Virus record (IMG/VR): IMGVR_UViG_3300017424_000003
Location: 1-39,691 of that record
Direction: 5' to 3' (one strand)
DNA length: 39,691 nt
Source: a virus
Under the pieces are notes generated by a model, which made no database searches, was not told the DNA's origin, and saw nothing but the letters and a program-made list of their open reading frames with translations. Below, one piece after another: positions 1 to 39,691 of the stretch. Every line of letters begins with the position of its first letter. Position 1 is the first letter of the stretch. The translations under genes and the position numbers were made by a program.

Positions 1-123
1 CCTGAAGCCGCCCTCTCCAGGCGTTGAGCGGCACGACATCAGCTTGCATTTAACTGCTCCATGACATGGGCAACGGCGTCATCGCCGGTTTCGTCTGTTG
101 ATCTTGCGAGAATATACAGCCCA
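1..123. repeat. Terminal direct repeat, copy 1 (identical to 39569..39691)
   Basis: Read directly: bases 1-123 equal bases 39569-39691 letter for letter. Offset is 39568 bp. Confidence 0.95.
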
Positions 124-368
124 CCGGCTGCGTTAAGAGCGCGTGCGAAATTCTGTTGTTTAGGGCGCCACGCATCACGACCAACCTTGGCCTCTATGCC
201 GATCATGCGTCCGTTAGGCTTAAACGACAGCAGAATGTCAGACGAACCGGGTAGCCCGTAGCGCAGCATGCGGTCATCGACCCGTGCGGCGCCTGTCGCA
301 TTGCTCCATGCTAAACCGTATGGCGATACCGCAAGCAACAGGCGTTTGACTAGATCCCCGTGTGTCAT
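39..368 (-). CDS. VRR-NUC family nuclease
   Basis: ORF 39..416 trimmed to ATG 368, which makes an ATGA overlap with the helicase stop at 365-367. SSDILLSF...IGIEAKVGRD...QQNFARALNAAGGLYILA fits the VRR-NUC PD-(D/E)xK pattern. Confidence 0.8.
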   Translation of the reverse strand: MTHGDLVKRLLLAVSPYGLAWSNATGAARVDDRMLRYGLPGSSDILLSFKPNGRMIGIEAKVGRDAWRPKQQNFARALNAAGGLYILARSTDETGDDAVAHVMEQLNAS

Positions 369-1744
369 CGTGATGCCCTCCACTGCTGGCGTTGCTTCAT
401 TATGTGCCCTGCCCATGCAGCGGGGTGTTTATACTTGCGCGAGCGTCCGAGCGCGATCAGGTCTTCGAGCGTCCTGGCCGATTTAAGCTCGTCCTTCTTT
501 TTCGCACGAATTGCGTCAAGGTCTACCACCTCAAGCTCGCCGTCAACGTATTCCACTTCGCGCCCACCAGTCGGGTAGACATATCCGCAACCCGGGCACT
601 GAGGCTCCGGCGCGTGAACACGATAGCACTCTGGGCATTGCTTAGTCGAAACTTCGGACTTGGCGCCCTTCTTTTTCTTGGGCCTGTCCTCTAGGTTCCA
701 TTCGCGCTCATCATCGGGAAGCCCATGCCGCATAGCGTTTCCAGCATGGTCAAGAATGATAGCGCCGCCACCATCTGGTTTAGGCCTCAATCCTCGACCG
801 ATCTGCTGAAGATGCAACGAAAGCGACTGTGTAGGGCGCAAGAGAATAACAGCCTCCACGGTTGGGACATCGAATCCCTCGCCAAACAGATCGGCGTTGC
901 TAAGCACCTGAATTGCTCCGCTGGTGAAATCTGCCACGATTGCATCGCGCGTTCCCGGGTGCGTGCTGCCATCAACGTGAGCCGCCGATATGCCAGCCTC
1001 GTTAAACTGCTCGGCAACGTGCTTGCTATGCTCGATCGAGACGGCGAACACGATAGCGCGCTTGCCCGCCGCCAGTTTCTTGTAATGACCAACGACATTG
1101 CCAACCACCGAAGGCTTGTCCATTACCTTGGCTAGGTCGTCGCGTTTGAAATCACCGGCCTGCGTGCCAACCTTGCCCACGTCTTCAGTCGATGGCGCGT
1201 AAAGCGTGTAGTCGCACAGCGAACCATTCTCCATGAGGTCCGAAACCGATGGCCCTTGAACCATGCTATCGAACCACTGGCTAAGGCCGCGACCATCCAG
1301 CCTCCAAGGCGTAGCCGTCAGGCCGACGATCTGAGCGCGCGGGAACGCATCATAGATTTGCTGATATTGCGACGCGCCCATGTGATGACACTCGTCAAAG
1401 ATAATCAGATCGGGCGGCGGCAGTTTACCAAGCCGTCGCGCCATCGTCTGCACGGACCCAACCTGCACCATCGCGTCTTTATCGCCAATGGATCCACCCA
1501 TAACCAAAGAATGCGGAATTTCCATCGACCAGAATGTGCGACTAGCCTGCAAGATAATCTCACGACGATGAACCACCCACCAGCAACGACGTCCGCGTTC
1601 TGCTGCTGTCTTAACCATGTACGCGCTTGTGACAGTCTTGCCGCCACCAGTTGCAAGTTGCACCAACACAGTCCGATCCATAGAACGAAATTGCGTGCGA
1701 ATGTCAGTGATAATCTGTTGCTGATAGTCTCTGAGTTCGATCAT
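365..1744 (-). CDS. Superfamily-2 DEAH-box DNA helicase with C-terminal zinc ribbon
   Basis: Walker A ATGGGKT, DECHH box, helicase-C region, and CPECY..CPGCG near the C-terminus. Start trimmed to MIELRDYQ (ATG 1744, ATGA overlap with the primase stop). Confidence 0.9.
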   Translation of the reverse strand: MIELRDYQQQIITDIRTQFRSMDRTVLVQLATGGGKTVTSAYMVKTAAERGRRCWWVVHRREIILQASRTFWSMEIPHSLVMGGSIGDKDAMVQVGSVQTMARRLGKLPPPDLIIFDECHHMGASQYQQIYDAFPRAQIVGLTATPWRLDGRGLSQWFDSMVQGPSVSDLMENGSLCDYTLYAPSTEDVGKVGTQAGDFKRDDLAKVMDKPSVVGNVVGHYKKLAAGKRAIVFAVSIEHSKHVAEQFNEAGISAAHVDGSTHPGTRDAIVADFTSGAIQVLSNADLFGEGFDVPTVEAVILLRPTQSLSLHLQQIGRGLRPKPDGGGAIILDHAGNAMRHGLPDDEREWNLEDRPKKKKGAKSEVSTKQCPECYRVHAPEPQCPGCGYVYPTGGREVEYVDGELEVVDLDAIRAKKKDELKSARTLEDLIALGRSRKYKHPAAWAGHIMKQRQQWRASR

Positions 1745-2664
1745 TGATCCGCCCAATCCGTGCCGACTGTTTCGGGAATAAAAACCTGTATCTTGATCGG
1801 CGTTGGCTTTGTTACCAGACGATTCGCGAGGCCGTAGCTATAGGCGTGGCCTGTGTAGCTGGCGTCGTTGTCGCCGTAGATATTGGTCTGCGTTACTTCG
1901 GGCGGCGGCTCCCACTTCCCCAGGTTGTTTGCGCTGATAAGCGACCAGCATGGTACGGCGAACCGGCGCGAGACAGACAGCGCGGTCTCAATACCCTCGG
2001 CAACGCCCAGAGTTGACGCGATCGGTCCGAGACGGATGGCGCAACCGGCTGGCAAAGGACCCGGCATCATAGCGCGATAGGCTTTCTTGCCCTCATGCAA
2101 AAAGGTTCGGTGGATATTCGTACCATGCCCGTCCGCGTCGTCGACCTTGGCGATCATTGCAGGCAGATACTCAAGCTCGTGCTTGGTCGCGCGCATGCGA
2201 GGCATGAAGCGCAGCACGGGCGGATAGGGTGGCTCGATACCGCGCGACCGGAGATAGGCCTCAGCAAGCGTTCCAGCGATGGGTACGGATGCCGACCAAA
2301 CCTCGCGCATGTCGCGCTTGCACTTCTCATCATCGCGCGCTGGCTTTGATGCAACGAATGTCGCTTCTGGCAGCAACTCACGGACGCGATTAGCCGTGTC
2401 TGGGAAGCTCATTCCCGTAATCAGCATCGCCAGTTTAACGCCGTCACCCGCGCCGCACTGGTTGCAGATCCACGTACCAAAACCTTCTTTGTCGTCGAAC
2501 CGCGCACGGTCCTTGCCGCCGCACAGGGGGCATGCGCGCTGCTTGCCATCAAGGAATGTCGTAGGAACACCAAGCAACGGAAGAATGGAGCGCCATCGCC
2601 CCTTCGCCTGCTCGCGCAGCTCTGGCATCTTGCGGAATGACCCCCGCTGGGCTAAATCAGTCAT
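1741..2664 (-). CDS. DNA primase (P4-alpha-type zinc ribbon + Toprim)
   Basis: CPLCGGKD...CNQCG zinc ribbon, Toprim motifs AEGIETALS and GDNDASY, and an AGGAG SD upstream of ATG 2664. Confidence 0.9.
   Translation of the reverse strand: MTDLAQRGSFRKMPELREQAKGRWRSILPLLGVPTTFLDGKQRACPLCGGKDRARFDDKEGFGTWICNQCGAGDGVKLAMLITGMSFPDTANRVRELLPEATFVASKPARDDEKCKRDMREVWSASVPIAGTLAEAYLRSRGIEPPYPPVLRFMPRMRATKHELEYLPAMIAKVDDADGHGTNIHRTFLHEGKKAYRAMMPGPLPAGCAIRLGPIASTLGVAEGIETALSVSRRFAVPCWSLISANNLGKWEPPPEVTQTNIYGDNDASYTGHAYSYGLANRLVTKPTPIKIQVFIPETVGTDWADQ
2630..2658 (+). promoter_or_regulatory. Candidate sigma70-type promoter for a plus-strand antisense RNA
   Basis: TTGCGG (2630-2635), 17 nt, TAAATC (2653-2658). 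Lies inside the 5' end of the primase CDS on the opposite strand. Confidence 0.3.
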
Positions 2665-5423: not shown

Positions 5424-6185
5424 TTAAGCTGCCCACCTCTTGCTCATCCGCTCCCGCCGCTCCCGAATCTCAGTAACGCGCTCGATCAACTGCGCATCGG
5501 TCAGAACGCCAGGGACATTCCCGCACAGCCAGAACTTGCCACCCTGAGTAGCCACACGTTCCGCGTTACACCTCACGACCGGTTTATATCCCTCCTTCTG
5601 CAAAAACGCCTGCGCCTCCCCTTCTGGCGACGTATCGCGGCCCGCGCTGATATCCGACACGGCGGTCTTGTAGCGGTCGCGGGTGAACTTTTGGGGCTTC
5701 TCAGGTGCTTTGCGTTCGAAGTCCACTGTGCGGATGTTGCGCCCCTTCGTAGGACGCTTAAGACCCTTTGCAGCAACCCAGCGTCGCATTGTCTTGGCAC
5801 TGACACCGTAATGCTTAGCCAGGAACGACAGCGGGTTGTCGGTCCACATCTCGACGAAGTCATCGGGGATAGGCTTCATCGGCATGCGACGGCTTTGGGG
5901 CGTGCCCTTGCTGAACCGGTTGCGATCGACGGCATTGCAGACGCGCTTACGACCGATGCCCATCTTCTTGGCGATCACGTCGTAGGAGTGGCCCTGCTCA
6001 ACCAACAGCTTGAGGGTGGCCAGTGCTTCCTCTGTCCATGCGCGCTGGTGAACCGACACGCCAGACATACGACGCCAGCGCATGATCGTGTGACGTCCAA
6101 CGCCGTACATCTCCATTTGTGCTGGCACCGTGTTGTGGAGGTGGTCGCGAAAGTCGGCGGGGAGGGGGTTTTTCAGGGGGGTCAT
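5424..6185 (-). CDS. Multi-HTH DNA-binding protein with a GcrA-like segment
   Basis: WTEEALATLKLLVEQGHSYDVIAKKMGIGRKRVCNAVDR resembles the GcrA N-terminus. Two further HTH-like stretches are GVGRHTIMRWRR and YGVSAKTMRRWV. Confidence 0.75.
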   Translation of the reverse strand: MTPLKNPLPADFRDHLHNTVPAQMEMYGVGRHTIMRWRRMSGVSVHQRAWTEEALATLKLLVEQGHSYDVIAKKMGIGRKRVCNAVDRNRFSKGTPQSRRMPMKPIPDDFVEMWTDNPLSFLAKHYGVSAKTMRRWVAAKGLKRPTKGRNIRTVDFERKAPEKPQKFTRDRYKTAVSDISAGRDTSPEGEAQAFLQKEGYKPVVRCNAERVATQGGKFWLCGNVPGVLTDAQLIERVTEIRERRERMSKRWAA

Positions 6186-6484: not shown

Positions 6485-6582
6485 ATCTCATCTCCCGATG
6501 CACGCGCAAATGCGCTGAAAACCAAACCAACAACAATGCTAAGGGCAATCCAGATGATTGCGCCGATAATCCAGGGGTTCAC
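6481..6582 (-). CDS. 33-aa single-pass membrane miniprotein
   Basis: Not in the ORF track because it is under 60 aa. GTG 6582 (GTGA overlap) is preceded by AAGGAG with 8-nt spacing. Translation: VNPWIIGAIIWIALSIVVGLVFSAFARASGDEM. Confidence 0.5.
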   Translation of the reverse strand: MNPWIIGAIIWIALSIVVGLVFSAFARASGDEM

Positions 6583-6806
6583 AACGCATTCTCCTTGGCT
6601 GGTCCATAAATCGTGATGCTGGTTTTGTTGCGACGCACGCTGAACTGCATACCTTCCCAAACCTCTTGGCCTTGCGAGTAGAATGAAATGCAGGCGATCC
6701 CATCATCTGACCAGTTATAGCTAGGTGCAGTCACGATCTTCACGACGCGAGCAACCAGATGATAATCATCTGGGTCTGCGTTTACGATTACCTTCGGCCT
6801 ACTCAT
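6579..6806 (-). CDS. Hypothetical protein
   Basis: 75-aa ORF with 4-nt overlaps at both ends. Confidence 0.6.
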   Translation of the reverse strand: MSRPKVIVNADPDDYHLVARVVKIVTAPSYNWSDDGIACISFYSQGQEVWEGMQFSVRRNKTSITIYGPAKENAL

Positions 6807-7384: not shown

Positions 7385-7561
7385 ATGAGCAAGCAGTACG
7401 GTACGCCGAATGACGCACAGTGGAACGCAGGCTATGACGCTTTCCGTCGTGGCGCAGTTATCAACGACTGCCCCTATACCGGCGTCAATGTCGATACGCC
7501 CGAATACACCGCATGGTGTGACGGTTGGAACGACGCAAAGCTCGATTGGGAGGACCGCTGA
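7385..7561 (+). CDS. Rmf/CrpP-like miniprotein
   Basis: 58 aa, not in the track. GGGAG SD. GYDAFRRGAVINDCPY...TAWCDGWNDA matches the ribosome-modulation-factor motif GYxAGxxG....CPY......WxxGW. Confidence 0.6.
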   Translation: MSKQYGTPNDAQWNAGYDAFRRGAVINDCPYTGVNVDTPEYTAWCDGWNDAKLDWEDR

Positions 7562-7562
7562 G

Positions 7563-7784
7563 ATGACCCACGACTACGACGCCATGACCCGCGCCATCAA
7601 GGACGCGCAGTTAGGCACACAGCTACGTATCATCCGCCAGATCGTGGAGGCCAAGGACTTCCAGGATTTCACGTCCGACGCGCTGTATATGCTCGACGAG
7701 GCTCTGGACGACATGGATGCGCAGGCGGTGGATATGCTGAGGCAGGAGGATTTGGAACTGCATGGGCCGGAGGTAGAGGCATGA
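7563..7784 (+). CDS. Strongly acidic 73-aa protein
   Basis: Trimmed to ATG 7563 after a GGGAGG SD. Counted 18 D/E against 6 K/R. Confidence 0.6.
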   Translation: MTHDYDAMTRAIKDAQLGTQLRIIRQIVEAKDFQDFTSDALYMLDEALDDMDAQAVDMLRQEDLELHGPEVEA

Positions 7785-8041
7785 GCGGCGGGGATTATGG
7801 GTTTGCAGGAAAGGTTGTGGAAACCCTTACTCCAGAACAAGTCCGCGTAGGTATGCGGGTGATGTCCGCTCCTTTTACCATGCTTGAACTGTGGACCGCT
7901 TTGGGCAATGCGGGTGTGGAGTATTGGTCGCTTGCAGCAGCTTGGGGCCTTGCTTGGCAGGAACGCGATCTAGGCCGTGTAGAATGCCTTGACGTTAGAA
8001 CCGGCAAGTGGGCACCGGTAGTAACACGAGACGCCGCATGA
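7781..8041 (+). CDS. Hypothetical protein
   Basis: 86-aa ORF with ATGA overlaps on both sides. Confidence 0.6.
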   Translation: MSGGDYGFAGKVVETLTPEQVRVGMRVMSAPFTMLELWTALGNAGVEYWSLAAAWGLAWQERDLGRVECLDVRTGKWAPVVTRDAA

Positions 8042-8187
8042 CCCCCCGCCAGATCGGCGCCACCGACTACCAGCGGGGCCGGACGCGGGCACAGAACCCT
8101 TATCGCCTAGCAGGACCGTCACGGGCTGCATGGTTTGGGGGTTGGGATGATGCGCTCAGGGCAGAGAAACAGGAGATGGCAGCATGA
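8038..8187 (+). CDS. Second Rmf/CrpP-like miniprotein
   Basis: 49 aa, not in the track. YQRGRTRAQNPY...RAAWFGGWDDA. ATGA-coupled at both ends. Confidence 0.55.
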   Translation: MTPRQIGATDYQRGRTRAQNPYRLAGPSRAAWFGGWDDALRAEKQEMAA

Positions 8188-8537
8188 CGCGTCGTGAAGA
8201 ATTAATATCTTTGGCAGAGCGCTGCGAAAGTATGGAAGGCGAAGACAGAGGCTTAGACACTTAAATATTTGATGCGCTTAATGGCGGAACAAGAGCAGGA
8301 CGCTTTCTGCTTCCATGGGCGCACCGATACACGTCCTCAGTTGATGCGGCTATGACACTTATTCCAAAGCCTTGGGTGCTGGAAACGCTGTCAGATCATG
8401 GCACGGGAAAATGGGGAGCATGCCTCAATATCCCTATGAAATGGGACTGCGGGGCTTTTGCTCCTACAGCTGCCAGAGCGCTAACCTCCGCGTGCCTTCG
8501 CGCACTTTCTACTGAGGAGTCCAAGCTATGTTCATAA
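8184..8537 (+). pseudogene. Single reading frame interrupted by one in-frame TAA (8262-8264)
   Basis: ATG 8184 and ORF 8352..8537 are in the same frame (168 nt apart). The only stop between them is TAA at codon 27, giving ...EDRGLDT*IFDALNGG... One counted line is 43% GC. Confidence 0.6.
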
Positions 8538-8734
8538 AGACCACCACCCACAAGCGCATCGTAGCGGAGAAGGATGAGGAGATTGCGGGGTTGATGAAGC
8601 GCGTAGCCAGTATGGGCTTCTGTATGGCTCAGGATGAAGACTTCATAGCTAGCCTGCAATCTCAGCTAGCCCCCTTCACCAAGATCCGTAACCGTGACAG
8701 TCGCGGACGCTTCATCAAGGACACCGTGGCATGA
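8528..8734 (+). CDS. Hypothetical protein
   Basis: 68-aa ORF overlapping the previous frame by 10 nt. Confidence 0.55.
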   Translation: MFIKTTTHKRIVAEKDEEIAGLMKRVASMGFCMAQDEDFIASLQSQLAPFTKIRNRDSRGRFIKDTVA

Positions 8735-8829
8735 CTATTGGAGACGGAATAGCAGTAGCAGCCCTCCCTATTGCAATGGCGATAATAGCGTGGGCTTGGG
8801 CTTGGGCACAAAGAGGACAACGCAAGTGA
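8731..8829 (+). CDS. 32-aa membrane miniprotein
   Basis: ATGA-coupled. Translation MTIGDGIAVAALPIAMAIIAWAWAWAQRGQRK. Uses several rare ATA/GTA codons, so uncertain. Confidence 0.4.
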   Translation: MTIGDGIAVAALPIAMAIIAWAWAWAQRGQRK

Positions 8830-8879
8830 TCTACCAGCGCCGCCACTCCCTCCACACCCGCGACAGGGACATTGCCAAC

Positions 8880-8984
8880 ATGCCACTACAGCCCGACCAT
8901 GCAGGCGAATCCTGGTACGTTTCTCTTGCCCTGTGGATCGCAATGGTGCTTGTCATCGTGGCATGCGCTGTGGCATTCGCTTAA
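8880..8984 (+). CDS. 34-aa membrane miniprotein (alternative GTG start 8826)
   Basis: MPLQPDHAGESWYVSLALWIAMVLVIVACAVAFA. An in-frame GTG at 8826 forms a GTGA overlap with the previous stop. Confidence 0.4.
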   Translation: MPLQPDHAGESWYVSLALWIAMVLVIVACAVAFA

Positions 8985-9003
8985 TCCTTTAGGAGATGAT
9001 GAG

Positions 9004-10227
9004 ATGACCGATACGACAGACCAGCAAGCGGTGACGGTTGCGCAGGACGATGAATGGCATCGCGCTCTGGCAATCAAGCGTTACGCCGATCCCGCCGTGC
9101 AGCGCGTGTCCTACCTTCTCGCTTGTCAGCTTGGCTTGCTCGGAAGGGGGAAGTTGATCGACTTCCACGAAGGGCAGTGCGCCATATCGGCAGCCGAGAG
9201 CATGGTGCAGGATGTTCGGCGAGAAGACGCCCGCCTCGCCTCTGTATCATCCGCGAGTGCAGAACTACCGGGTGACGTGCGCGCGCTGGTGGTCGCGGCG
9301 CGCGAGTTTTGGGATGACGAGAACAGCGGGACGGTTCGAAGCCATGCGCTCGATAAGGCTCTGGAAGCGTTTTCCAGCCGCGTCCCCTATGACGGCGAAC
9401 CCTCCCCCGAACCTGTACCCGCGACCAATCAGGCGGGAGAGGTGGAGGGTCTGGACGCTTACGACGCTGGCCTACTCGGTGATGGGGGCGGTGGCGATGT
9501 CGACTGGTGGCAGAACTATATCCGCGACGAGTTGGAGCGCGCGCATGAGTTCTACAGCGATCAGGTCGCGGGCTTAACTGCGCCGGTCACGACAATGCCC
9601 GAAGCCACAGTGTCCATAGTGGCGCGCACGGTTCGTCAGACCTTGCGCGATTACGGTCATGGCACTGCCGAGAGTTCGTTGCCGGAAACGATCGCGAGTG
9701 AAGTTGCCTCCGCCCTCGCTGCCGTACCGACGCCTTTGATAGTGGATGATCTGTCAGATGCGCTTTACGCATTGCGGCGTCACCTGAACCTCGTCGGCTA
9801 CGCAATCAATGACCGCAATTGGCGCGATACCGAATCCGCTTACAACGCACATCGCGATAATCTCGACGGGATTTTAATTAAGAGACGCCGCGCCGCCCTC
9901 GCTACCCAGCCCGCAACGTCGCAGGAGGGGGAATGGGTGACGGTCCCACGCGAGCCAACACAGGACCAGCTTATTGCCGGGAACGGCATGTTCCACACGG
10001 GCGAAGTGCCGCTCAACATTTACCGCGCCATGATCGCCGCCACCCCGACGCCTCCCACCCTATCGGAGGACTTGCGGGATGTTGCGCGGGATGCCTTGGT
10101 CACTCTCGATAATATCGGAATGCAAGCCGGATTGGCAATTTGCGCCGAGGACGGCACGACGGGCGGGGATGTCCTCACAGTCGTCGAACGCCTCCGCGCC
10201 GCCCTCGCACAGGTGAAGGCATCATGA
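9004..10227 (+). CDS. Large acidic hypothetical protein (407 aa)
   Basis: ORF 8872..10227 trimmed to ATG 9004 after an AGGAG. Modular, with no enzymatic motif recognised. Confidence 0.75.
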   Translation: MTDTTDQQAVTVAQDDEWHRALAIKRYADPAVQRVSYLLACQLGLLGRGKLIDFHEGQCAISAAESMVQDVRREDARLASVSSASAELPGDVRALVVAAREFWDDENSGTVRSHALDKALEAFSSRVPYDGEPSPEPVPATNQAGEVEGLDAYDAGLLGDGGGGDVDWWQNYIRDELERAHEFYSDQVAGLTAPVTTMPEATVSIVARTVRQTLRDYGHGTAESSLPETIASEVASALAAVPTPLIVDDLSDALYALRRHLNLVGYAINDRNWRDTESAYNAHRDNLDGILIKRRRAALATQPATSQEGEWVTVPREPTQDQLIAGNGMFHTGEVPLNIYRAMIAATPTPPTLSEDLRDVARDALVTLDNIGMQAGLAICAEDGTTGGDVLTVVERLRAALAQVKAS

Positions 10228-10571
10228 GCGGGGCTGTCGAAGGGGTGGCGCTGCGTGAGGCGCTTATGGCATGGGAGCCGGACGGGGATGATCGGGTTCG
10301 TCCGCTGTTGCTTGCGGAAGCAGACCGTCGCGACGCGCTCGAATACAACCTCACCGACGCAAACCACGTCATCGCGTTCCTGCTGCATCGCCTAGACGCC
10401 TCCCTCACCACACCCCCAGCGCGGTCCTATGCGGCTGCGATCGAGGACGCGGCGAAGGTGGCGGACGATTACGCACTAGGCGCCCTTGAGGGTGGCGAGC
10501 CGTTAATCGAGGCCACTGCGGAGACGATCGCCGCCGCGATCCGCGTCTTGTCGCAGGAACCCCGCGCATGA
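10224..10571 (+). CDS. Hypothetical acidic protein
   Basis: Trimmed to ATG 10224 (ATGA overlap). 115 aa. Confidence 0.65.
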   Translation: MSGAVEGVALREALMAWEPDGDDRVRPLLLAEADRRDALEYNLTDANHVIAFLLHRLDASLTTPPARSYAAAIEDAAKVADDYALGALEGGEPLIEATAETIAAAIRVLSQEPRA

Positions 10572-10972
10572 AAACCCTCCTAACTTACAAGGGCATAAAA
10601 TACCTGTGCATCGCGGCGGCACTGCCAACGACGGCTGTGGTGACGCACAGGAGCCACAAGCAGATCAACCGTGTTGTGGAGCGCGTGCATCCTAAGCCCG
10701 TCCGTAGGTACGTTGCGGAGGTTCGTAAGCCTATCCCGGCCACCGACCTCCCCATTGCACCCGTCGCAGCCATCGCGACTGCTGAGTGTATCCCTGGAGG
10801 TGGCGGGTTTGCTGGTGGCGGCGGATCTGGAGGCTTTATCGGCGTAGGAGGTGGCGTTATCGGCATAACGCCCATCCCCAGCCCCACGTCGCCCGTTCCA
10901 GAGCCGTCCGGTTGGGCACTTATGATTCTGGGGTTTGGTGTTGTTGGTGGTGTTATGCGGAGGAAGGGGTGA
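10568..10972 (+). CDS. PEP-CTERM (PEPxxWA-type) sorting-signal protein, glycine-rich
   Basis: The C-terminus VPEPSGWALMILGFGVVGGVMRRKG is PEP, then a TM helix, then a basic tail. Hydrophobic N-terminus and a GGGGFAGGGGSGGFIGVGGG tract. Confidence 0.75.
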   Translation: MKTLLTYKGIKYLCIAAALPTTAVVTHRSHKQINRVVERVHPKPVRRYVAEVRKPIPATDLPIAPVAAIATAECIPGGGGFAGGGGSGGFIGVGGGVIGITPIPSPTSPVPEPSGWALMILGFGVVGGVMRRKG

Positions 10973-11199
10973 TGCTGATGGTAAGCCCGCACATCTTAGA
11001 TATCAGGTGGCGGATCGCTGCGGAAGAAAAGGCAGGGCGCATGCCGCCTGCTCAATCCCCTTATGGCAACTGGTACGCGCGCAAACTTGACGACCAATGG
11101 GGCATCATCCAGCATATTAGCGACCGCCTCCAGAACGCGCGATTTGTACCAGTCAGCGATGCTGAATTTGCCGAAGTCAATTCACGCTACCGAGACTAA
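10972..11199 (+). CDS. Hypothetical protein
   Basis: 75 aa from ATG 10972, which shares one nt with the upstream TGA. Last gene of the plus-strand cassette. Confidence 0.6.
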   Translation: MLMVSPHILDIRWRIAAEEKAGRMPPAQSPYGNWYARKLDDQWGIIQHISDRLQNARFVPVSDAEFAEVNSRYRD

Positions 11200-32478: not shown

Positions 32479-34074
32479 TCAGCCCCATGCACTACTAGAT
32501 GGCTGCGGGCGTCGTCTGTAGTCACCATCGGGCGGGTTGGTGGATTCAACCTTCACCTTGACGATTGCCGGGTGCGCTTCATCAATCGCGCGACCGATGT
32601 TGGCAGCCGCGTCAATCTCGTCATCCCACTTGCCAGCCGGGAACTTGCGGTATTGATCCAGCACTTCTTCGCCCATCGGTCCGATAGGGATATGTACCTC
32701 GCCCATCGCAGCCTTGGCCTGGAATGCCTGCGCTTTGGTTGCCTTGTCGCCGCCCGCTGTTGATAGCGGCTCGATACGACACAGCACACGGTTACGCCGC
32801 ATTGCAGCCCTGACGAACGGCTCTGCTGACTTCCAGTTGTTGTCGGCTTCAGGAAACCAACATAGCGGCTTCCATTTTTTGATGAGTGGCAACGCACCTG
32901 CATCGGCTAACGTCTGATCGCCCGTGTGTTCGTCGAGCTTCACACCCATCGCCACGTCGATCGTGCCTTGTACACGATAGCCGTCGAGCAACCAGATCCC
33001 TTGGTGCTCATCAATTCCCCATACCCGGAACACGTTAAAGTCGTTCTTCTCGCCGCCTCCAGGTGCATGATCGCTGGTCATGTAAATGTTGAGCGCGCGT
33101 GGACGATCGGCCAGCGAGAACCGCTTGAACCAATCAGTTTTGAAGAACGTACCTTCGTCCGCTGTTGGCTTCTGCTGATACAGGCTGGTCCACGTCCGTG
33201 TGTTGCGCTGGAACGGCGCCCAATGCTCATGACTGAACCACTCAGGCCACAGCGTTTCGCCTATAGCGCGCTCCAGGGGGTCGTCATCACGGTCTGCAAT
33301 GGCGGGCAGACAGATCACCTCCCACCAGCGTCCATCACGTCCGTAGAACGCTCCTGACTGCCCATCCCAGTCTTCAGGCAAGATACGCCCAGCAGGGTCG
33401 TCGGCATGCCACCGTGTCAGGATCATGATCTGCGGCGAACCTGGAATAAGACGCGAGCAGAAGTCATCCGTGTAGGCGTCCCAAGTCGTGTCACGGATTA
33501 CCTGAGACTCTGCCGCCTGCCGCCCCTTGATAGGATCATCGAGCACGCCAAGCGCGCCACGGTTGCCGGTGAGGCCGGACAGGATACCGCCTGCCATGTA
33601 TTCGGAGCCATTCTCCAGCGCCCATTCGTCAGCCGCCGATTGATCGGAACGCAGCGCGCATGACGGGAAAATGCGGTTAAAGCCCGGTGTCTTGATAAGC
33701 TGGCGAGCGCGTCTGCCCTGCTTCTTTGCGATGTCACTGGCATAGCTGGCAAGGATCACGTTGCGCTTGGGCTTGGTTGCCATGAACCACGGGACATAGA
33801 CGACATCCACATAGGTGGACTTGGCAGAACCTGGAGGCATCAGCACCATGAGGTTAGGAACGCTGGCCGTGCCAAGTAGCTGAAGCTTGCGCAACAGAAG
33901 CGCGTGATGGCTCGCAAGCTTGGGCTGGTGCAGGCCTGTAAAGCGTTCCTCGTCGGGATCTTCGCTAACCGGGACAGTTGGAATGTCGACCGAACAGGCA
34001 AAGTCCGCGACATAGCGGCGGGCTAGTTCGTCGCGTGCTGCCTGTACGTCAGCCTGAGTAAGTCTAAGCGCCAC
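32479..34074 (-). CDS. terL: Terminase large subunit
   Basis: Walker A MPPGSAKST, an ATPase domain followed by a nuclease domain, 531 aa. Confidence 0.9.
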   Translation of the reverse strand: MALRLTQADVQAARDELARRYVADFACSVDIPTVPVSEDPDEERFTGLHQPKLASHHALLLRKLQLLGTASVPNLMVLMPPGSAKSTYVDVVYVPWFMATKPKRNVILASYASDIAKKQGRRARQLIKTPGFNRIFPSCALRSDQSAADEWALENGSEYMAGGILSGLTGNRGALGVLDDPIKGRQAAESQVIRDTTWDAYTDDFCSRLIPGSPQIMILTRWHADDPAGRILPEDWDGQSGAFYGRDGRWWEVICLPAIADRDDDPLERAIGETLWPEWFSHEHWAPFQRNTRTWTSLYQQKPTADEGTFFKTDWFKRFSLADRPRALNIYMTSDHAPGGGEKNDFNVFRVWGIDEHQGIWLLDGYRVQGTIDVAMGVKLDEHTGDQTLADAGALPLIKKWKPLCWFPEADNNWKSAEPFVRAAMRRNRVLCRIEPLSTAGGDKATKAQAFQAKAAMGEVHIPIGPMGEEVLDQYRKFPAGKWDDEIDAAANIGRAIDEAHPAIVKVKVESTNPPDGDYRRRPQPSSSAWG

Positions 34075-34399
34075 CCTTTGCCGCCAATTCGCGCAATGTG
34101 GCTTCGGACAAGTCGTCGACAGGCAAGGACTTCACTTCGTGCTGTATTGCCTCGCCATCGGGGCCACTAAGTTCTTTGGGCAAGATAGACGCGACAATCT
34201 TGACGTAATCGCCTGGGCGCTCATCTCTCATGTCGATAATAGCCTTGACGCCGTTAGTGTTCCAATCAGCCAGAAGCGCATCTATGAATGCTTCACCAAG
34301 TCTTGCACGCGCACCTTTGGGGCGTCCGGCTGGATTGCCAGACTGCCCCGGCTTGAAACGGGTATCCCTGATTTTGCCTGTAACTTCAGGATCGTCCAT
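34064..34399 (-). CDS. terS: Terminase small subunit candidate (DUF5681-like)
   Basis: RFKPGQSGNPAGRPKGARARL motif. Trimmed to ATG 34399 (the track start 34408 is GTG). Overlaps terL by 11 nt. Confidence 0.7.
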   Translation of the reverse strand: MDDPEVTGKIRDTRFKPGQSGNPAGRPKGARARLGEAFIDALLADWNTNGVKAIIDMRDERPGDYVKIVASILPKELSGPDGEAIQHEVKSLPVDDLSEATLRELAAKGGA

Positions 34400-34460
34400 C
34401 TCTCTCACTTAACCCCAAACGCCCGAAGCATCAAGTGGGCGGTGCCTTCGTCCTTGGTCT

Positions 34461-36928: not shown

Positions 36929-37080
36929 CTACCTTCTGCAATTATTTTCGCGCGCCGACGACGCTGAGCCTCACGCTCCAGCTTTTGCCGACAGATACGG
37001 CAGGATCCGACAGCGCGATCGGTACGGGCCTTGGTGTTGGCCGGGGTTCGCGGATGGCCGCATGGATATAACTCAGCCAC
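36925..37080 (-). CDS. 51-aa zinc-ribbon-like miniprotein
   Basis: GTG 37080 behind GGAGAGGA. CGHPRTPANT...CRIC followed by a basic tail. 8-nt overlap with the upstream gene. Confidence 0.45.
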   Translation of the reverse strand: MAELYPCGHPRTPANTKARTDRAVGSCRICRQKLEREAQRRRRAKIIAEGS

Positions 37081-37231
37081 GGGCCATCCTCTCCAAACGC
37101 CGTGTAAGCGGGTTCTGATGGCCGCTACGAGCCTTGTCTGCCCAAAGCCTATACCAGTACGCCCAGACCGTCCCATCGGCCTTCACGGCCCTGCGCTCGT
37201 AGTGAGCTGCGACCCGTTCCGCGACGGTCAT
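37073..37231 (-). CDS. 52-aa miniprotein
   Basis: Not in the track. ATGA-coupled at 37231. Better GC3 and codon usage than the overlapping 83-aa track ORF. Confidence 0.45.
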   Translation of the reverse strand: MTVAERVAAHYERRAVKADGTVWAYWYRLWADKARSGHQNPLTRRLERMARG

Positions 37232-37389
37232 GCCTTCACCTCCACATAGTCACCGCGACGAAATGCGTTGACGACTTCGGTAGCTGCCGACTGAGCGTAA
37301 TACTCGGTCAGACCGGCGTCAGCGGCGAACTCTGCGCGGATTCGAGCGATGCGGGCTTTCTTGGCGGCGGCGTGTTGTGCGAGGGTCAT
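37228..37389 (-). CDS. 53-aa miniprotein
   Basis: Trimmed to MTLAQHAAAKK (ATG 37389) behind a GGAG. Confidence 0.5.
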   Translation of the reverse strand: MTLAQHAAAKKARIARIRAEFAADAGLTEYYAQSAATEVVNAFRRGDYVEVKA

Positions 37390-37416
37390 CTGGGTTACTC
37401 CGTTGCTGTTGATTGG

Positions 37417-37445
37417 TGTATGACAGTCCTCTGGCGCCCCGTCAA
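37417..37445 (-). promoter_or_regulatory. Phage promoter copy B (TTGACGG-N13-TGTCATACACCAA)
   Basis: Minus strand reads TTGACG (37445-37440), 17 nt, CATACA (37422-37417). Confidence 0.55.
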
Positions 37446-37454
37446 CACCTATTT

Positions 37455-37607
37455 TCACCCCCGCCACAACCGAAGATAGGCGGTGGCGTGATGCGGCTCG
37501 ATCCCATAGCGGGCGGCGAGTTTGGCAGGATCCGCCTTGTCCAGCTTGGTGGGGTCGGCCTTCATCATTTCTATGAGGAATGTTGTTAGGGGCATGGTCT
37601 GTTTCAT
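37455..37607 (-). CDS. 50-aa miniprotein
   Basis: Not in the track. ATGA-coupled to the SLOG gene. MKQTMPLTTFLIEMMKADPTKLDKADPAKLAARYGIEPHHATAYLRLWRG. Confidence 0.45.
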   Translation of the reverse strand: MKQTMPLTTFLIEMMKADPTKLDKADPAKLAARYGIEPHHATAYLRLWRG

Positions 37608-37948
37608 GGCTTGACCTCATGCACCTGAGCCGTTCCAAGCCTGAGACTGGCCTTCCTCACCATATCCCTTGTTCCATTGCCGCCTGGGAATGCGAGGCAG
37701 TGAGTTGGCTTGCCCTCGTCTAACATTTTCGTGTTGCGATCGGGGCCAGCGCGTCCAACCATCGGAAACCCTAGGTTCTTAACGCCACGATCTTCAGCCC
37801 ACTGTTGAGCGTGAAGATCCGCGCCGCCGTATGGACACCGGCCTTCGATTATTGCGGTTATGCCGTGCTTGGCGTGAATGCCGTCTAGCATTCTCCATAC
37901 TCGCGCTTTGTCAGCGTAGTGCCTGCCCCCGCATACCAGCAGCCTCAT
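37604..37948 (-). CDS. SLOG-superfamily protein (DUF2493 / YspA-like)
   Basis: MRLLVCGGR...IIEGRCPYGGADLHAQQWAEDRGV...GPDRNTKML...CLAFPGGNGTRDMV matches the DUF2493 pattern. Confidence 0.75.
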   Translation of the reverse strand: MRLLVCGGRHYADKARVWRMLDGIHAKHGITAIIEGRCPYGGADLHAQQWAEDRGVKNLGFPMVGRAGPDRNTKMLDEGKPTHCLAFPGGNGTRDMVRKASLRLGTAQVHEVKP

Positions 37949-38205
37949 ACCGCCCACACCCTCTTACCGTTCACCCGCCGCAACCGTAATCCCGCCCGTC
38001 TGTTGCGCTCCCTTACCTCCCACAGCGCCTTCAACTTAGTTAGGCGGTAGATCGGATCGGTTGCGTAAAGATCGCGCCGTCTGGTTGCTCGGCGGTCGTT
38101 GTCGAACAGGCGGTAATGGTCGTCTGCTGTCATCTCGACCACGCCTACCACGGTGACCACACCTCTTTTCAAAACATCCGACGACAATACCTGCGCTACC
38201 CCCAT
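37945..38205 (-). CDS. Arg-rich hypothetical protein
   Basis: ORF 37945..38367 trimmed to MGVAQV (ATG 38205) behind GGAGAAGGGG. The upstream part of the track ORF is the iteron region. Confidence 0.55.
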   Translation of the reverse strand: MGVAQVLSSDVLKRGVVTVVGVVEMTADDHYRLFDNDRRATRRRDLYATDPIYRLTKLKALWEVRERNRRAGLRLRRVNGKRVWAV

Positions 38206-38426
38206 ATCCCCTTCTCCAACCTTTTCTTCTATATTTATAACTTTGGGTGTGGTCATTAGTAAAAAGCCCCGGAAAACTGCCAAAAATTGGTGACCACACC
38301 CCTGTGGTTTTAGGGTGTGGTACCACACCAGTTTGGGTGTGGACACGTTAACCACGTTGCGAGTCATTCTTAAAAAAGGGTGTGGTCATCTGCCAAAAGA
38401 CCACACCTGACCGCAGGGTGTGGTCA
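38154..38426. repeat. Iteron / operator array: 9 half-sites of GGGTGTGGTCA, including a perfect 16-bp palindrome
   Basis: Sites: 38154-38163(-), 38245-38255(+), 38291-38301(-), 38313-38322(+), 38321-38329(-), 38335-38345(+, one mismatch), 38378-38388(+), 38399-38407(-), 38416-38426(+). The palindrome GGTGTGGTACCACACC is at 38314-38329. Confidence 0.85.
38234..38263 (-). promoter_or_regulatory. Weak candidate promoter with an iteron in its spacer
   Basis: Minus strand reads TTTACT (38263-38258), 18 nt, TATAAA (38239-38234). The spacer contains TGACCACACCC. Confidence 0.3.
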
Positions 38427-39617
38427 CCCTTCATAGACCCATACGCGCGTCGTTTTGCGGCTCCCGTCGTCCTGCCGCATCTTGGGGGTTTTCTGCACCC
38501 AGCCAAGCCCAGACATGACCGTAGCAATGCGCGTTTTCGTAAAGCCATCCTGCCGATCGAGCGGGATCTTGATGATGTTCGTCAGGATCTGGACAGACGT
38601 GTAGCTCATACCGCGCACGATCGTTTCGCCTACGTGGTCCTGCCACGGATCGATTGAAACGCGCTCGACCTGCTCAGCCCCAGCAAGCACACTGTCGTGC
38701 TCGTTCAGCCACCAACGCTCCTTATCCCGGTAACGCTCGACCGCTTCAGCCCACAACTGGTCGCGCTTTCGGGTCAGCTTCTCCATGTCAATCCGCGTGC
38801 ATGTGACGGGCCAGTAACGCCGGTTGCCGGTCGGGTCACTGAGATAGCCGGTATCTGACTTAGGGTTGACGGACGCGGCTAGGACGCACTGGCGAGGAGT
38901 CTCGACGGTATGCCGTCCGTAGGATGGGCGCACCTTGTCCGTCTGCATCGTGATGATGGCCTTGACCAGATCCACGTCCGCGCGCCGGATCGATGACAGC
39001 TCGGCAAACTCTACAACCCACTTGCCCTGGATCTGCTCGACGAACCGCTTATGGTCTCGCAATTCGTTGACCATCTCGGTAAAGTTATCCGCGCCGAACA
39101 GCACGCGAAGGGCGGTGGACTTACCAAGGTTCTGCGGACCCTCAAGGACAAGCATGTTATCCATCTTGCACCCGGGTTCGTAGATGCGAGCGACAGCACC
39201 GATCATCCATTTAGGACCAATCATCTGCTCGTATTCCGTGTCGGGCGTGCCGAACAGAATAGGCAGAAAGCGGTCCAGTCGGGTTACGCCATCCCACTTC
39301 AAGCTATTGAGATAATCGCGAACCGGGTGATAGCCGTTGTCAATACCGAGACGCGCGACGGCTGTCGGAATGTCGTTCTTGTTAGGCTGAAACCCGGCTT
39401 GTTCGATGATGATCTGAATATCGACGTAATCAGTGTCGCATATTGGGATGCCTCGCCATTCAGTGTTGCCAGTCATTTCGTTGAGGCGGATTGCAGTGCC
39501 CAGACTAGGCAGGTTCCGCAGATAGGTCATAAGATTGTAAAGGGTTTTCTTTTCCCCCTTCGACCCGACCTGAAGCCGCCCTCTCCAGGCGTTGAGCGGC
39601 ACGACATCAGCTTGCAT
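38424..39617 (-). CDS. VirE-family P-loop NTPase (primase-associated replicative helicase-like)
   Basis: YLNSLKWDGVTRLD, KWMIGAVARIYEPGCKMDNMLVLEGPQNLGKST (Walker A), WVVEFAEL, and DPTGNRRYWPV. The ATG at 39617 lies inside the terminal repeat (equivalent to position 49). Confidence 0.9.
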   Translation of the reverse strand: MQADVVPLNAWRGRLQVGSKGEKKTLYNLMTYLRNLPSLGTAIRLNEMTGNTEWRGIPICDTDYVDIQIIIEQAGFQPNKNDIPTAVARLGIDNGYHPVRDYLNSLKWDGVTRLDRFLPILFGTPDTEYEQMIGPKWMIGAVARIYEPGCKMDNMLVLEGPQNLGKSTALRVLFGADNFTEMVNELRDHKRFVEQIQGKWVVEFAELSSIRRADVDLVKAIITMQTDKVRPSYGRHTVETPRQCVLAASVNPKSDTGYLSDPTGNRRYWPVTCTRIDMEKLTRKRDQLWAEAVERYRDKERWWLNEHDSVLAGAEQVERVSIDPWQDHVGETIVRGMSYTSVQILTNIIKIPLDRQDGFTKTRIATVMSGLGWVQKTPKMRQDDGSRKTTRVWVYEG

Positions 39618-39691
39618 TTAACTGCTCCATGACATGGGCAACGGCGTCATCGCCGGTTTCGTCTGTTGATCTTGCGAGAATATACAGCCCA
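39569..39691. repeat. Terminal direct repeat, copy 2 (identical to 1..123)
   Basis: Read directly. See copy 1. Confidence 0.95.

Follow-up and report, generated by a model that had tools for sequence, protein, structure and literature searches.

The window analysed here comprises 39,691 nt of the IMG/VR record IMGVR_UViG_3300017424_000003 and carries a cluster of short repeats in the non-coding gap directly behind a gene of the VapE family. The phage of the window is here named WIN, and compared loci of its relatives are given as L0xx codes. What is the function of this repeat array? A first-pass annotation had proposed a replication origin or, alternatively, a master operator. Based on our comparative analysis we consider it highly probable that the region 38134-38426 is a phage replication origin of the rep-ori type known from the Staphylococcus aureus pathogenicity islands (SaPIs) and other phage-inducible chromosomal islands (PICIs), here located in a true phage. 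The homology of VapE to the initiator Rep1 of SaPI1, the placement of the array, an apparent purifying selection on its DNA and the covariation of the repeat word with the C-terminal domain of VapE all support the origin part of the proposal.

Ten copies of the repeat unit GGTGTGGTCA were found between 38136 and 38426 in both orientations, five of them exact and five with one or two mismatches (Table 1). Nine of these sites had been described before; all nine were recovered, five as exact GGTGTGGTCA and four with 1-2 mismatches. The perfect 16-bp palindrome, GGTGTGGTACCACACC, the two inverted pairs (38379-38387/38399-38407 and 38245-38255/38291-38301) and the 24-nt A/T-rich tract, cttttcttctatatttataacttt, were confirmed as well. 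The iteron word can be written as GGGTGT-GGTC-A with a variable 4-nt core, which is GGTC in WIN. Eight sites (S1-S8) are located on the gene-proximal side of the AT tract and two (S9, S10) on its distal side in the orientation opposite to S8, with the tract off-centre in the array. In windows of 24, 30, 40 and 100 nt no part of the genome is richer in A/T than this tract, and at 30, 50 and 100 bp none forms a less stable duplex. An AT-rich or TATAAT-like block was present at the same position in the relatives.

Additionally, an accessory motif, TTTTGGCAG, occurs in exactly two copies in the genome, each of them beside an iteron. The relatives have kept it as TTTTGGCAG or TTTCGCAG(T)TTTC, and it is arranged as a short inverted repeat, CGCAG-TTTT-CTGCG, in the 70% clade. 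A host factor or a second protein may bind to this motif. As stated before, the repeat is not a DnaA box. Only 6 of 9 positions match the consensus TTATCCACA and the core varies among relatives, which rules out this identity, and no DnaA box was seen at the locus by sequence inspection.

Allowing for up to one mismatch, the 10-mer GGTGTGGTCA matched nine times in the whole window, compared to an expectation of 2.36 +/- 1.68. Nine matches were reached in none of 100 shuffles, and seven of the nine lie in the array locus. The shorter word GGTGTGG was found 16 times in the genome (5.95 expected), with nine of these copies inside 273 bp, where about 0.04 would be expected. The genome-wide motif search, which had been suggested as a check, therefore returned a single cluster and no comparable density elsewhere. 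No second iteron cluster was found anywhere in the genome, and the two 1-mismatch matches at other places are isolated.

The borders of the gap had to be revised. The first-pass annotation had taken the ATG at 38205 as the next minus-strand gene start, leaving a gap of about 220 bp. This ATG is not a start codon, because it lies inside a conserved non-coding GGGG-TATA-GGGG element and is replaced by AAG in the 97%-identical L025. In the relatives the element reads GGGGCTAAGGGGG, GGGGTATATAGGGGG and similar, and the ATG is not conserved. Comparison with L001, L027 and L025 places the next gene start at ATG 38133. The gap is therefore about 290 bp in size (38134-38423), and the site at 38154-38163 is intergenic like all other sites.

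The DNA of the array is far more conserved than the neighbouring gene. Between WIN and L025 the VapE gene differs at 16% of its nucleotides and at 43.8% of the third codon positions. In the 294-nt gap 19 differences were found, none of them within the 96 iteron nucleotides. Six to seven of the 19 are located in 38208-38426, and the bulk is clustered at 38181-38207, just beyond the G-run/TATA/G-run element. Between phages sharing the repeat word the array is about 3% diverged versus 44% at the third codon positions of VapE, and comparison with L028 gave the same picture. The near-identity to L025 begins at the VapE stop codon, and the C-terminal coding DNA in front of it has diverged to the same degree as the remainder of the gene. 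For this reason the array appears to be under strong purifying selection at the DNA level, and a recent transfer would be the poorer explanation.

A 140-aa open reading frame (ORF; 37945-38367) had been predicted across the array by a gene caller. It was rejected as coding, since its frame is lost in L001 and L027, and the array divergence of about 3% falls well short of the 44% that real genes show at their synonymous sites. The confinement of the near-identity to the DNA past the stop codon likewise rules out this ORF.

The same data bear on the suggestion that the repeats are functionless and arose by chance or as recombination debris at a mosaic module junction. The region is indeed a mosaic boundary, and the identity to L001 and L027 jumps at both of its edges. 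However, the observed enrichment was never reached in shuffles, positions and orientations of the sites are conserved across relatives of 65-100% identity, and there are zero substitutions in the iteron nucleotides at a synonymous-site divergence of 44%. An array without function is therefore scarcely credible.

The gene preceding the array encodes a protein of the VapE family (PF05272, E 4e-76). Its sole sequence match in the PDB was 7pds_A (phmmer, E 9.7e-41), and 7PDS represents the complex of SaPI1 Rep1 with DNA (depositors' paper, PMC9371898). An AlphaFold2 (AF2) model of VapE built from 59 homologues reached a pLDDT of 88.3. In Foldseek it matched 7pds over the whole chain (E 1.6e-28, TMq 0.84), and 7pds scored well ahead of NrS-1, SaPI5 PriRep5 and poxvirus D5. 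By sequence and predicted structure, VapE is a full-length homologue of SaPI1 Rep1. The Walker A residue K166 of VapE aligns with K186 of Rep1, and the hairpin residues R230/Y233/R235 align with R248/Y251/K253. In Rep1 these positions were mutated in functional assays, the Walker A lysine as K186A and the hairpin as triple and single mutants (PMC9371898). Furthermore, SaPI1 Rep1 is a proven initiator-helicase, and its origin is located directly 3' of its gene (PMC9371898). The model of the VapE C-terminal domain consists of three helices followed by a beta wing (H-H-H-beta4, pLDDT 88), and the full-length alignment to 7pds covers this domain. The origin-binding domain of P4 alpha was absent from the fold matches of the isolated domain.

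To compare the position of the array among phages, relatives of VapE were collected in IMG/VR as well as in metagenomes and genomes, and exact-protein look-ups were added. A blastn search of 37000-39617 against cultured phages gave no match, and the comparison therefore relied on metagenomic and prophage relatives. At a VapE identity of at least 65%, all 19 distinct loci have an array directly after the VapE gene as in WIN, and 17 of the 19 have the locus-wide peak of one 7-mer in the 415 bp past the stop codon, and in the remaining two this window ties for most 7-mer copies. Among more distant loci the peak lies there in 11 of 37. Arrays follow VapE genes in many otherwise unrelated contexts, in distant relatives whatever lies downstream, and the only gene family common to all 24 array-bearing loci compared is VapE. 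A textbook arrangement was found in L016, with six direct copies of GGTCCCAC, an AT-rich block and six inverted copies. Cultured phages carrying a primase-VapE fusion and an array in the gap after that gene are Marinobacter PS3, Pseudomonas vB_Pae_U5 and Burkholderia vB_HM795.

In total, six repeat cores were found among WIN and its relatives (GGTC, GTAC, AGAC, GGAC, GGCC and AGTC). Relatives with 97-98% VapE identity have retained GGTC. The core is GTAC in L001 (VapE 92%) and AGAC in L027 (93%), in both cases at homologous sites and within a conserved flanking context. In the 65-70% clade, which includes Sphingomonas prophages, the same site offsets and orientations are found with the core GGAC, AGAC, GGCC or AGTC.

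The assembly of Sphingomonas sp. R86520 contains three copies of the VapE-origin module (L079, L080 and L081) with identical C-terminal domain and iterons. Two of them are located near opposite ends of a 4.4-Mb contig and one on a separate 42.8-kb contig. They may represent a prophage and its excised or episomal form, or an assembly duplication.

Which protein recognizes the iterons? The VapE proteins of WIN, L001 and L027 are 92-93% identical overall and 76-77% identical in residues 305-397. In 30-nt windows of the DNA, WIN and L001/L027 share 28-30 of 30 positions up to about 38734; identity then drops across the C-terminal coding region and the array (~38733-38134) and is back to 29-30 of 30 at 38101-37952. 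Since identity falls only there and the flanks are near-identical, the unit that has diverged between phages with different words appears to be the VapE C-terminal domain together with the array.

Across 18 loci, the distance between iteron cores was not correlated with that of the N-terminal domain (r 0.08) or the ATPase (r 0.02). For the wing residues 371-397 the correlation was r 0.25 (p 0.009) and the partial correlation r 0.34 (p 0.0006). The most informative C-terminal columns for the core were 376-380; R378 is present in both AGTC lineages and W377 in four of five GGAC or GGCC loci. VapE is thus probably the binder of the iterons, through its C-terminal wing, as judged from this covariation.

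The 62-aa basic protein encoded next to the array was rejected as binder, since it hardly changes between WIN, L001 and L027, which use three different iteron words. Over most of its length (37952-38101) its gene shares 29-30 of every 30 nt with L001/L027, and the genes around it are only ~80-90% identical. Either a recombination junction at the border of the origin cassette or strong constraint on a DNA or protein element could account for this near-identity.

Bases 1-123 of the window recur as 39569-39691, a terminal duplication of 123 bp that contains the start codon of VapE. The sequence represents a complete genome of 39,568 bp that is circular (or terminally redundant), which places the genes for primase and SF2 helicase, found at the start of the window, directly upstream of VapE. 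WIN is a complete tailed phage and not a satellite, because it encodes terminase, portal and capsid as well as tail and lysis proteins of its own. A PICI or satellite would be a small island of ~10-15 kb with few virion genes and a need for a helper phage, which does not apply to this 39,568-bp circle.

The closest known system is the pri-rep-ori replicon of SaPIs and PICIs, with SaPI1 Rep1 (PDB 7PDS), SaPIbov1, SaPI5 PriRep5 and the E. coli PICI EcCICFT073 as examples. According to PMC9371898, SaPI origins consist of 6-12 iterons directly downstream of rep with an AT-rich region near the centre and at least two iterons per side in opposite directions; the C-terminal winged helix recognizes the iterons, and a separate loader is unnecessary. 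The same layout is found in PICIs of Gram-negative bacteria, whose rep-ori segments are able to replicate on their own (PMC6092414). Specificity is not the same in all relatives and is determined by the initiator's C-terminal domain (PMC9371898, PMC6092414).

WIN agrees with these systems in several features. The putative initiator is a Rep-type superfamily 3 (SF3, AAA+) helicase; for its C-terminal domain, a winged helix that reads the iterons as in the self-loading SaPI initiators is a prediction. The array lies directly 3' of the initiator gene, with S1 overlapping the stop codon, and its ten iterons are within the range of 6-12. The AT-rich region has at least two opposed iterons per side, in WIN S8 and seven more versus S9/S10. 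Furthermore, the primase gene is located upstream of rep in the same module, in WIN across the circular junction. On the other hand, WIN is a 39.6-kb tailed phage with virion and lysis genes, its array includes an overlapping 16-bp palindrome, SF2 helicase and nuclease genes are inserted between primase and rep, and its relatives suggest an alphaproteobacterial, Sphingomonas-like host.

The following mechanism, each step of which is borrowed from the homologous SaPI system, would be in agreement with these features. The VapE/Rep1-like SF3 helicase would recognize the GGGTGT-GGTC-A iterons via the beta-wing of its C-terminal winged helix, and several protomers or hexamers would assemble on the eight gene-proximal and two distal sites. 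S8 and S9/S10 point away from the AT tract in opposite directions; the tract (38221-38244) would melt and the helicase would load itself bidirectionally without a separate loader. Synthesis would then be primed by the Zn-ribbon/Toprim primase of the phage. The DNA would probably be copied by a host polymerase, because family searches of the WIN proteins, which did not include every ORF, returned no phage polymerase. With regard to specificity, the 4-nt iteron core and the C-terminal wing would form a matched pair, exchanged or co-evolving as one cassette among related phages.

Several observations weigh against an origin of this type. The fold search with the isolated C-terminal domain gave weak matches, mostly to winged-helix proteins (best E 0.075; C-terminal domain of 7pds E 0.42), and because of this the winged-helix assignment rests on the topology and the full-length match. 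An array immediately behind the gene is not obvious in about half of the distant VapE loci. The iterons of WIN are 10-11 bp long and those of SaPIs 5-8 bp, and the array is lopsided (8 + 2), whereas SaPIs have roughly half of the sites per side. The covariation of wing and core could partly reflect physical linkage instead of recognition, because the wing codons are the coding DNA closest to the array. Cumulative GC skew showed no polarity switch at the locus, but is uninformative because nearly all genes are on one strand. Finally, a -10-like box is present inside the AT tract and a role in transcription is thus possible.

This last point leads to the alternative that the array is a transcriptional operator only, where a regulator or VapE as repressor would control an AT-tract promoter of the downstream small and packaging genes. 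The array is located at the junction of the replication module and the downstream module, S8 lies on the minus strand between a weak -35-like TTTACT and the -10-like TATAAA, and in relatives a TATAAT follows directly after two tandem sites. However, a strict sigma-70 promoter and terminator scan of 37800-38800 gave no match, and the promoter mentioned in the first-pass annotation is a weak visual match. The motif is found at no other intergenic region, and the helicase is the only partner gene that all array-bearing loci have in common. The helix-turn-helix (HTH) protein at 5424-6185 was rejected as a conserved partner, since it has a single IMG/VR relative on a contig outside the VapE hits. 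Ten sites over 290 bp with an inverted pair around the weakest duplex of the genome rather correspond to the architecture of an origin, and the homologous systems were shown experimentally to be origins (PMC9371898, PMC6092414). We therefore regard a pure operator as improbable.

An extension of the origin reading combines both roles. Here wing and core would form a compact, swappable cassette that provides related phages of the Sphingomonas type with private origins, a kind of replicon incompatibility or immunity, and the array would double as control region of the downstream operon. The second role is proposed because of the -10-like box inside the AT tract and the location of S8 in the promoter spacer. 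We consider this extension speculative and rather unlikely. If true, the loading of the helicase at the origin would at the same time act as a switch for middle or late transcription, and the six words with the wing variants at 376-380 would represent a readable recognition code for self-loading helicases.

A role of the array in packaging (pac/cos) or in plasmid-type partition, with the small terminase or a centromere-binding protein as its binding partner, has to be considered as well. Clusters of short repeats are common at pac and partition sites, a block ending in the terminase genes lies downstream of the array, and some Sphingomonas relatives are on contigs of ~43-49 kb. However, the small terminase candidate is 3.7 kb away, and no ParA/ParB-like match was obtained in any family search of WIN proteins. 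Moreover, in distant relatives the array follows VapE regardless of the downstream genes, and the repeat word tracks the VapE C-terminus. The chance that the array serves packaging or partition is accordingly very small.

As models for an origin the first-pass annotation had named P4 ori/crr, lambda ori and iteron plasmids. The common element, iterons and an unwinding tract beside replication genes, applies to WIN, but the closest model is the SaPI/PICI origin instead. Lambda ori with its O protein and iteron plasmids (RepA, pi, TrfA) have repeated initiator sites beside an AT-rich unwinding element, and in lambdoid phages the initiator specificity co-varies with the iterons. Lambda O and plasmid Rep initiators are not helicases and recruit host DnaB via P or DnaA. 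Iteron plasmids use a WH1-WH2 Rep protein, direct iterons of 17-22 bp and usually DnaA boxes. In lambda the iterons are located inside the O gene, whereas the WIN sites are intergenic and next to an SF3 helicase gene. Unlike in iteron plasmids, the WIN sites are 10-11 bp long and of mixed orientation, no DnaA box was seen, and family searches of WIN proteins returned no Rep_3-type protein.

The alpha protein of P4, reportedly a primase-helicase from the D5/VapE-like SF3 clade, reads 8-bp iterons with an origin-binding domain at its C-terminus (PDB 1KA8). P4 requires two iteron clusters, ori and crr, about 4.5 kb apart, whereas WIN has a single cluster, and primase and helicase are fused in P4 but encoded by separate genes in WIN. 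P4 was named as a parallel in PMC6092414. In the distant relatives L021 (2705-4924) and L082-L084 the VapE domain is likewise fused to an N-terminal primase (~730-830 aa); these fusions resemble SaPI5 PriRep5 and P4 alpha.

For a further true phage, Enterococcus phage Abitsa (genus Efquatrovirus), an origin was predicted in a 2026 paper (PMC13517437). It shares with WIN a SaPI-Rep-like self-loading helicase and has about seven 10-bp iterons around an AT-rich region (PMC13517437). Unlike in WIN, the Abitsa helicase is related to PriRep5 and not to Rep1, and the phage is lytic with a Gram-positive host; its origin is a prediction as well.

The origin design is already documented for SaPIs and PICIs, and WIN represents a further example rather than a new kind of element. 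None of the papers searched links VapE, iterons and phage origins for this lineage. With this analysis, a prominent non-coding region of an uncultivated phage and its gene for a "virulence-associated protein E" receive a putative function, and the SaPI/PICI design would also apply to a family that comprises true tailed phages as well as prophages of Sphingomonas. The relatives provide a natural series in which the site positions are fixed and repeat core and helicase wing change together. This series may be useful in studies of origin recognition by self-loading helicases and in the design of orthogonal replicons. Looking directly 3' of VapE/Rep1-like genes may also be a quick route to the annotation of phage origins.

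Table 1. Coordinates of the candidate origin, its elements and associated genes in the WIN window
Feature	Position	Strand	Remarks
Candidate origin, non-coding	38134..38426	-	VapE stop to ATG 38133; contains all iterons, AT tract and accessory motifs
Iteron S1, GGTGTGGTCA, exact	38417..38426	+	overlaps VapE stop codon
Iteron S2, GGTGTGGTCT, 1 mismatch	38398..38407	-	inverted relative to S1 and S3
Accessory motif TTTTGGCAG, copy 2	38390..38398	-	between S2 and S3
Iteron S3, GGTGTGGTCA, exact	38379..38388	+	
Iteron S4, GGTGTGGACA, 1 mismatch	38336..38345	+	
Iterons S5 and S6	38314..38329		S5 38314-38323 (+), S6 38320-38329 (-); head-to-head overlap, perfect 16-bp palindrome GGTGTGGTACCACACC
Iteron S7, GGTGTGGTCA, exact	38291..38300	-	
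Accessory motif TTTTGGCAG, copy 1	38277..38285	-	adjoins S7
Iteron S8, GGTGTGGTCA, exact	38246..38255	+	abuts AT-rich tract, points away from it
AT-rich tract cttttcttctatatttataacttt, candidate DNA-unwinding element	38221..38244		20/24 A/T; -10-like TATAAA on minus strand
G-run/TATA/G-run element, minus strand GGGGATATGGGGG	38199..38211		contains false ATG 38205; between AT tract and distal iterons
Iteron S9, GGTGTGGTCA, exact	38154..38163	-	far side of AT tract, orientation opposite to S8
Iteron S10, GGCGTGGTCG, degenerate, 2 mismatches	38136..38145	-	tandem with S9; kept in L025
VapE/Rep1-like SF3 helicase-initiator, 397 aa, predicted iteron binder	38424..39617	-	PF05272, 7pds_A match, AF2 model
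VapE C-terminal domain, residues 305-397, predicted winged-helix origin recognition	38427..38705	-	wing 371-397 most variable
Small nuclease	39-416	-	between SF2 helicase and VapE
SF2 (ResIII/DEAD) helicase	365..1756	-	between primase and VapE
Primase (Zn-ribbon + Toprim)	1741..2664	-	replication-module partner upstream of VapE, two genes between
62-aa arginine-rich protein	37945..38133	-	first gene past candidate origin; start ATG 38133 by comparison with relatives
Small terminase candidate	34064-34408		3.7 kb from array

Nearly all genes of the WIN genome are located on the minus strand. Along the direction of transcription an HTH protein, a YqaJ exonuclease and an HNH endonuclease are followed by the Zn-ribbon/Toprim primase, the SF2 helicase, the small nuclease and, past the window junction, by VapE and the non-coding gap. 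After the gap there are ~3.7 kb of small genes, then small and large terminase, portal, major head protein, tail genes and lysozyme. No integrase was seen among the WIN ORFs searched. A tRNA scan and an Rfam scan of the whole window gave no match, and an RNA gene in the gap is therefore unlikely.

Just after the origin-proximal small gene, a YspA/SLOG-family protein of 117 aa is encoded (37604-37957, minus strand; PF10686, E 2.7e-16), a domain unusual for the early or middle region of a phage. A second gap of 318 bp (6485-6802) is located upstream of the HTH and recombination genes and probably represents the early promoter region. Three 2-mismatch iteron matches near this gap (6724, 6806 and 6904) are at chance level. 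The sole plus-strand ORF block of the window (7410-11199) resembles a moron or accessory region. It includes a 451-aa protein without a Pfam family and with at most a weak match to an uncharacterised PHROG, as well as a 134-aa protein (10568-10972) with a PEP-CTERM sorting signal (PF07589).

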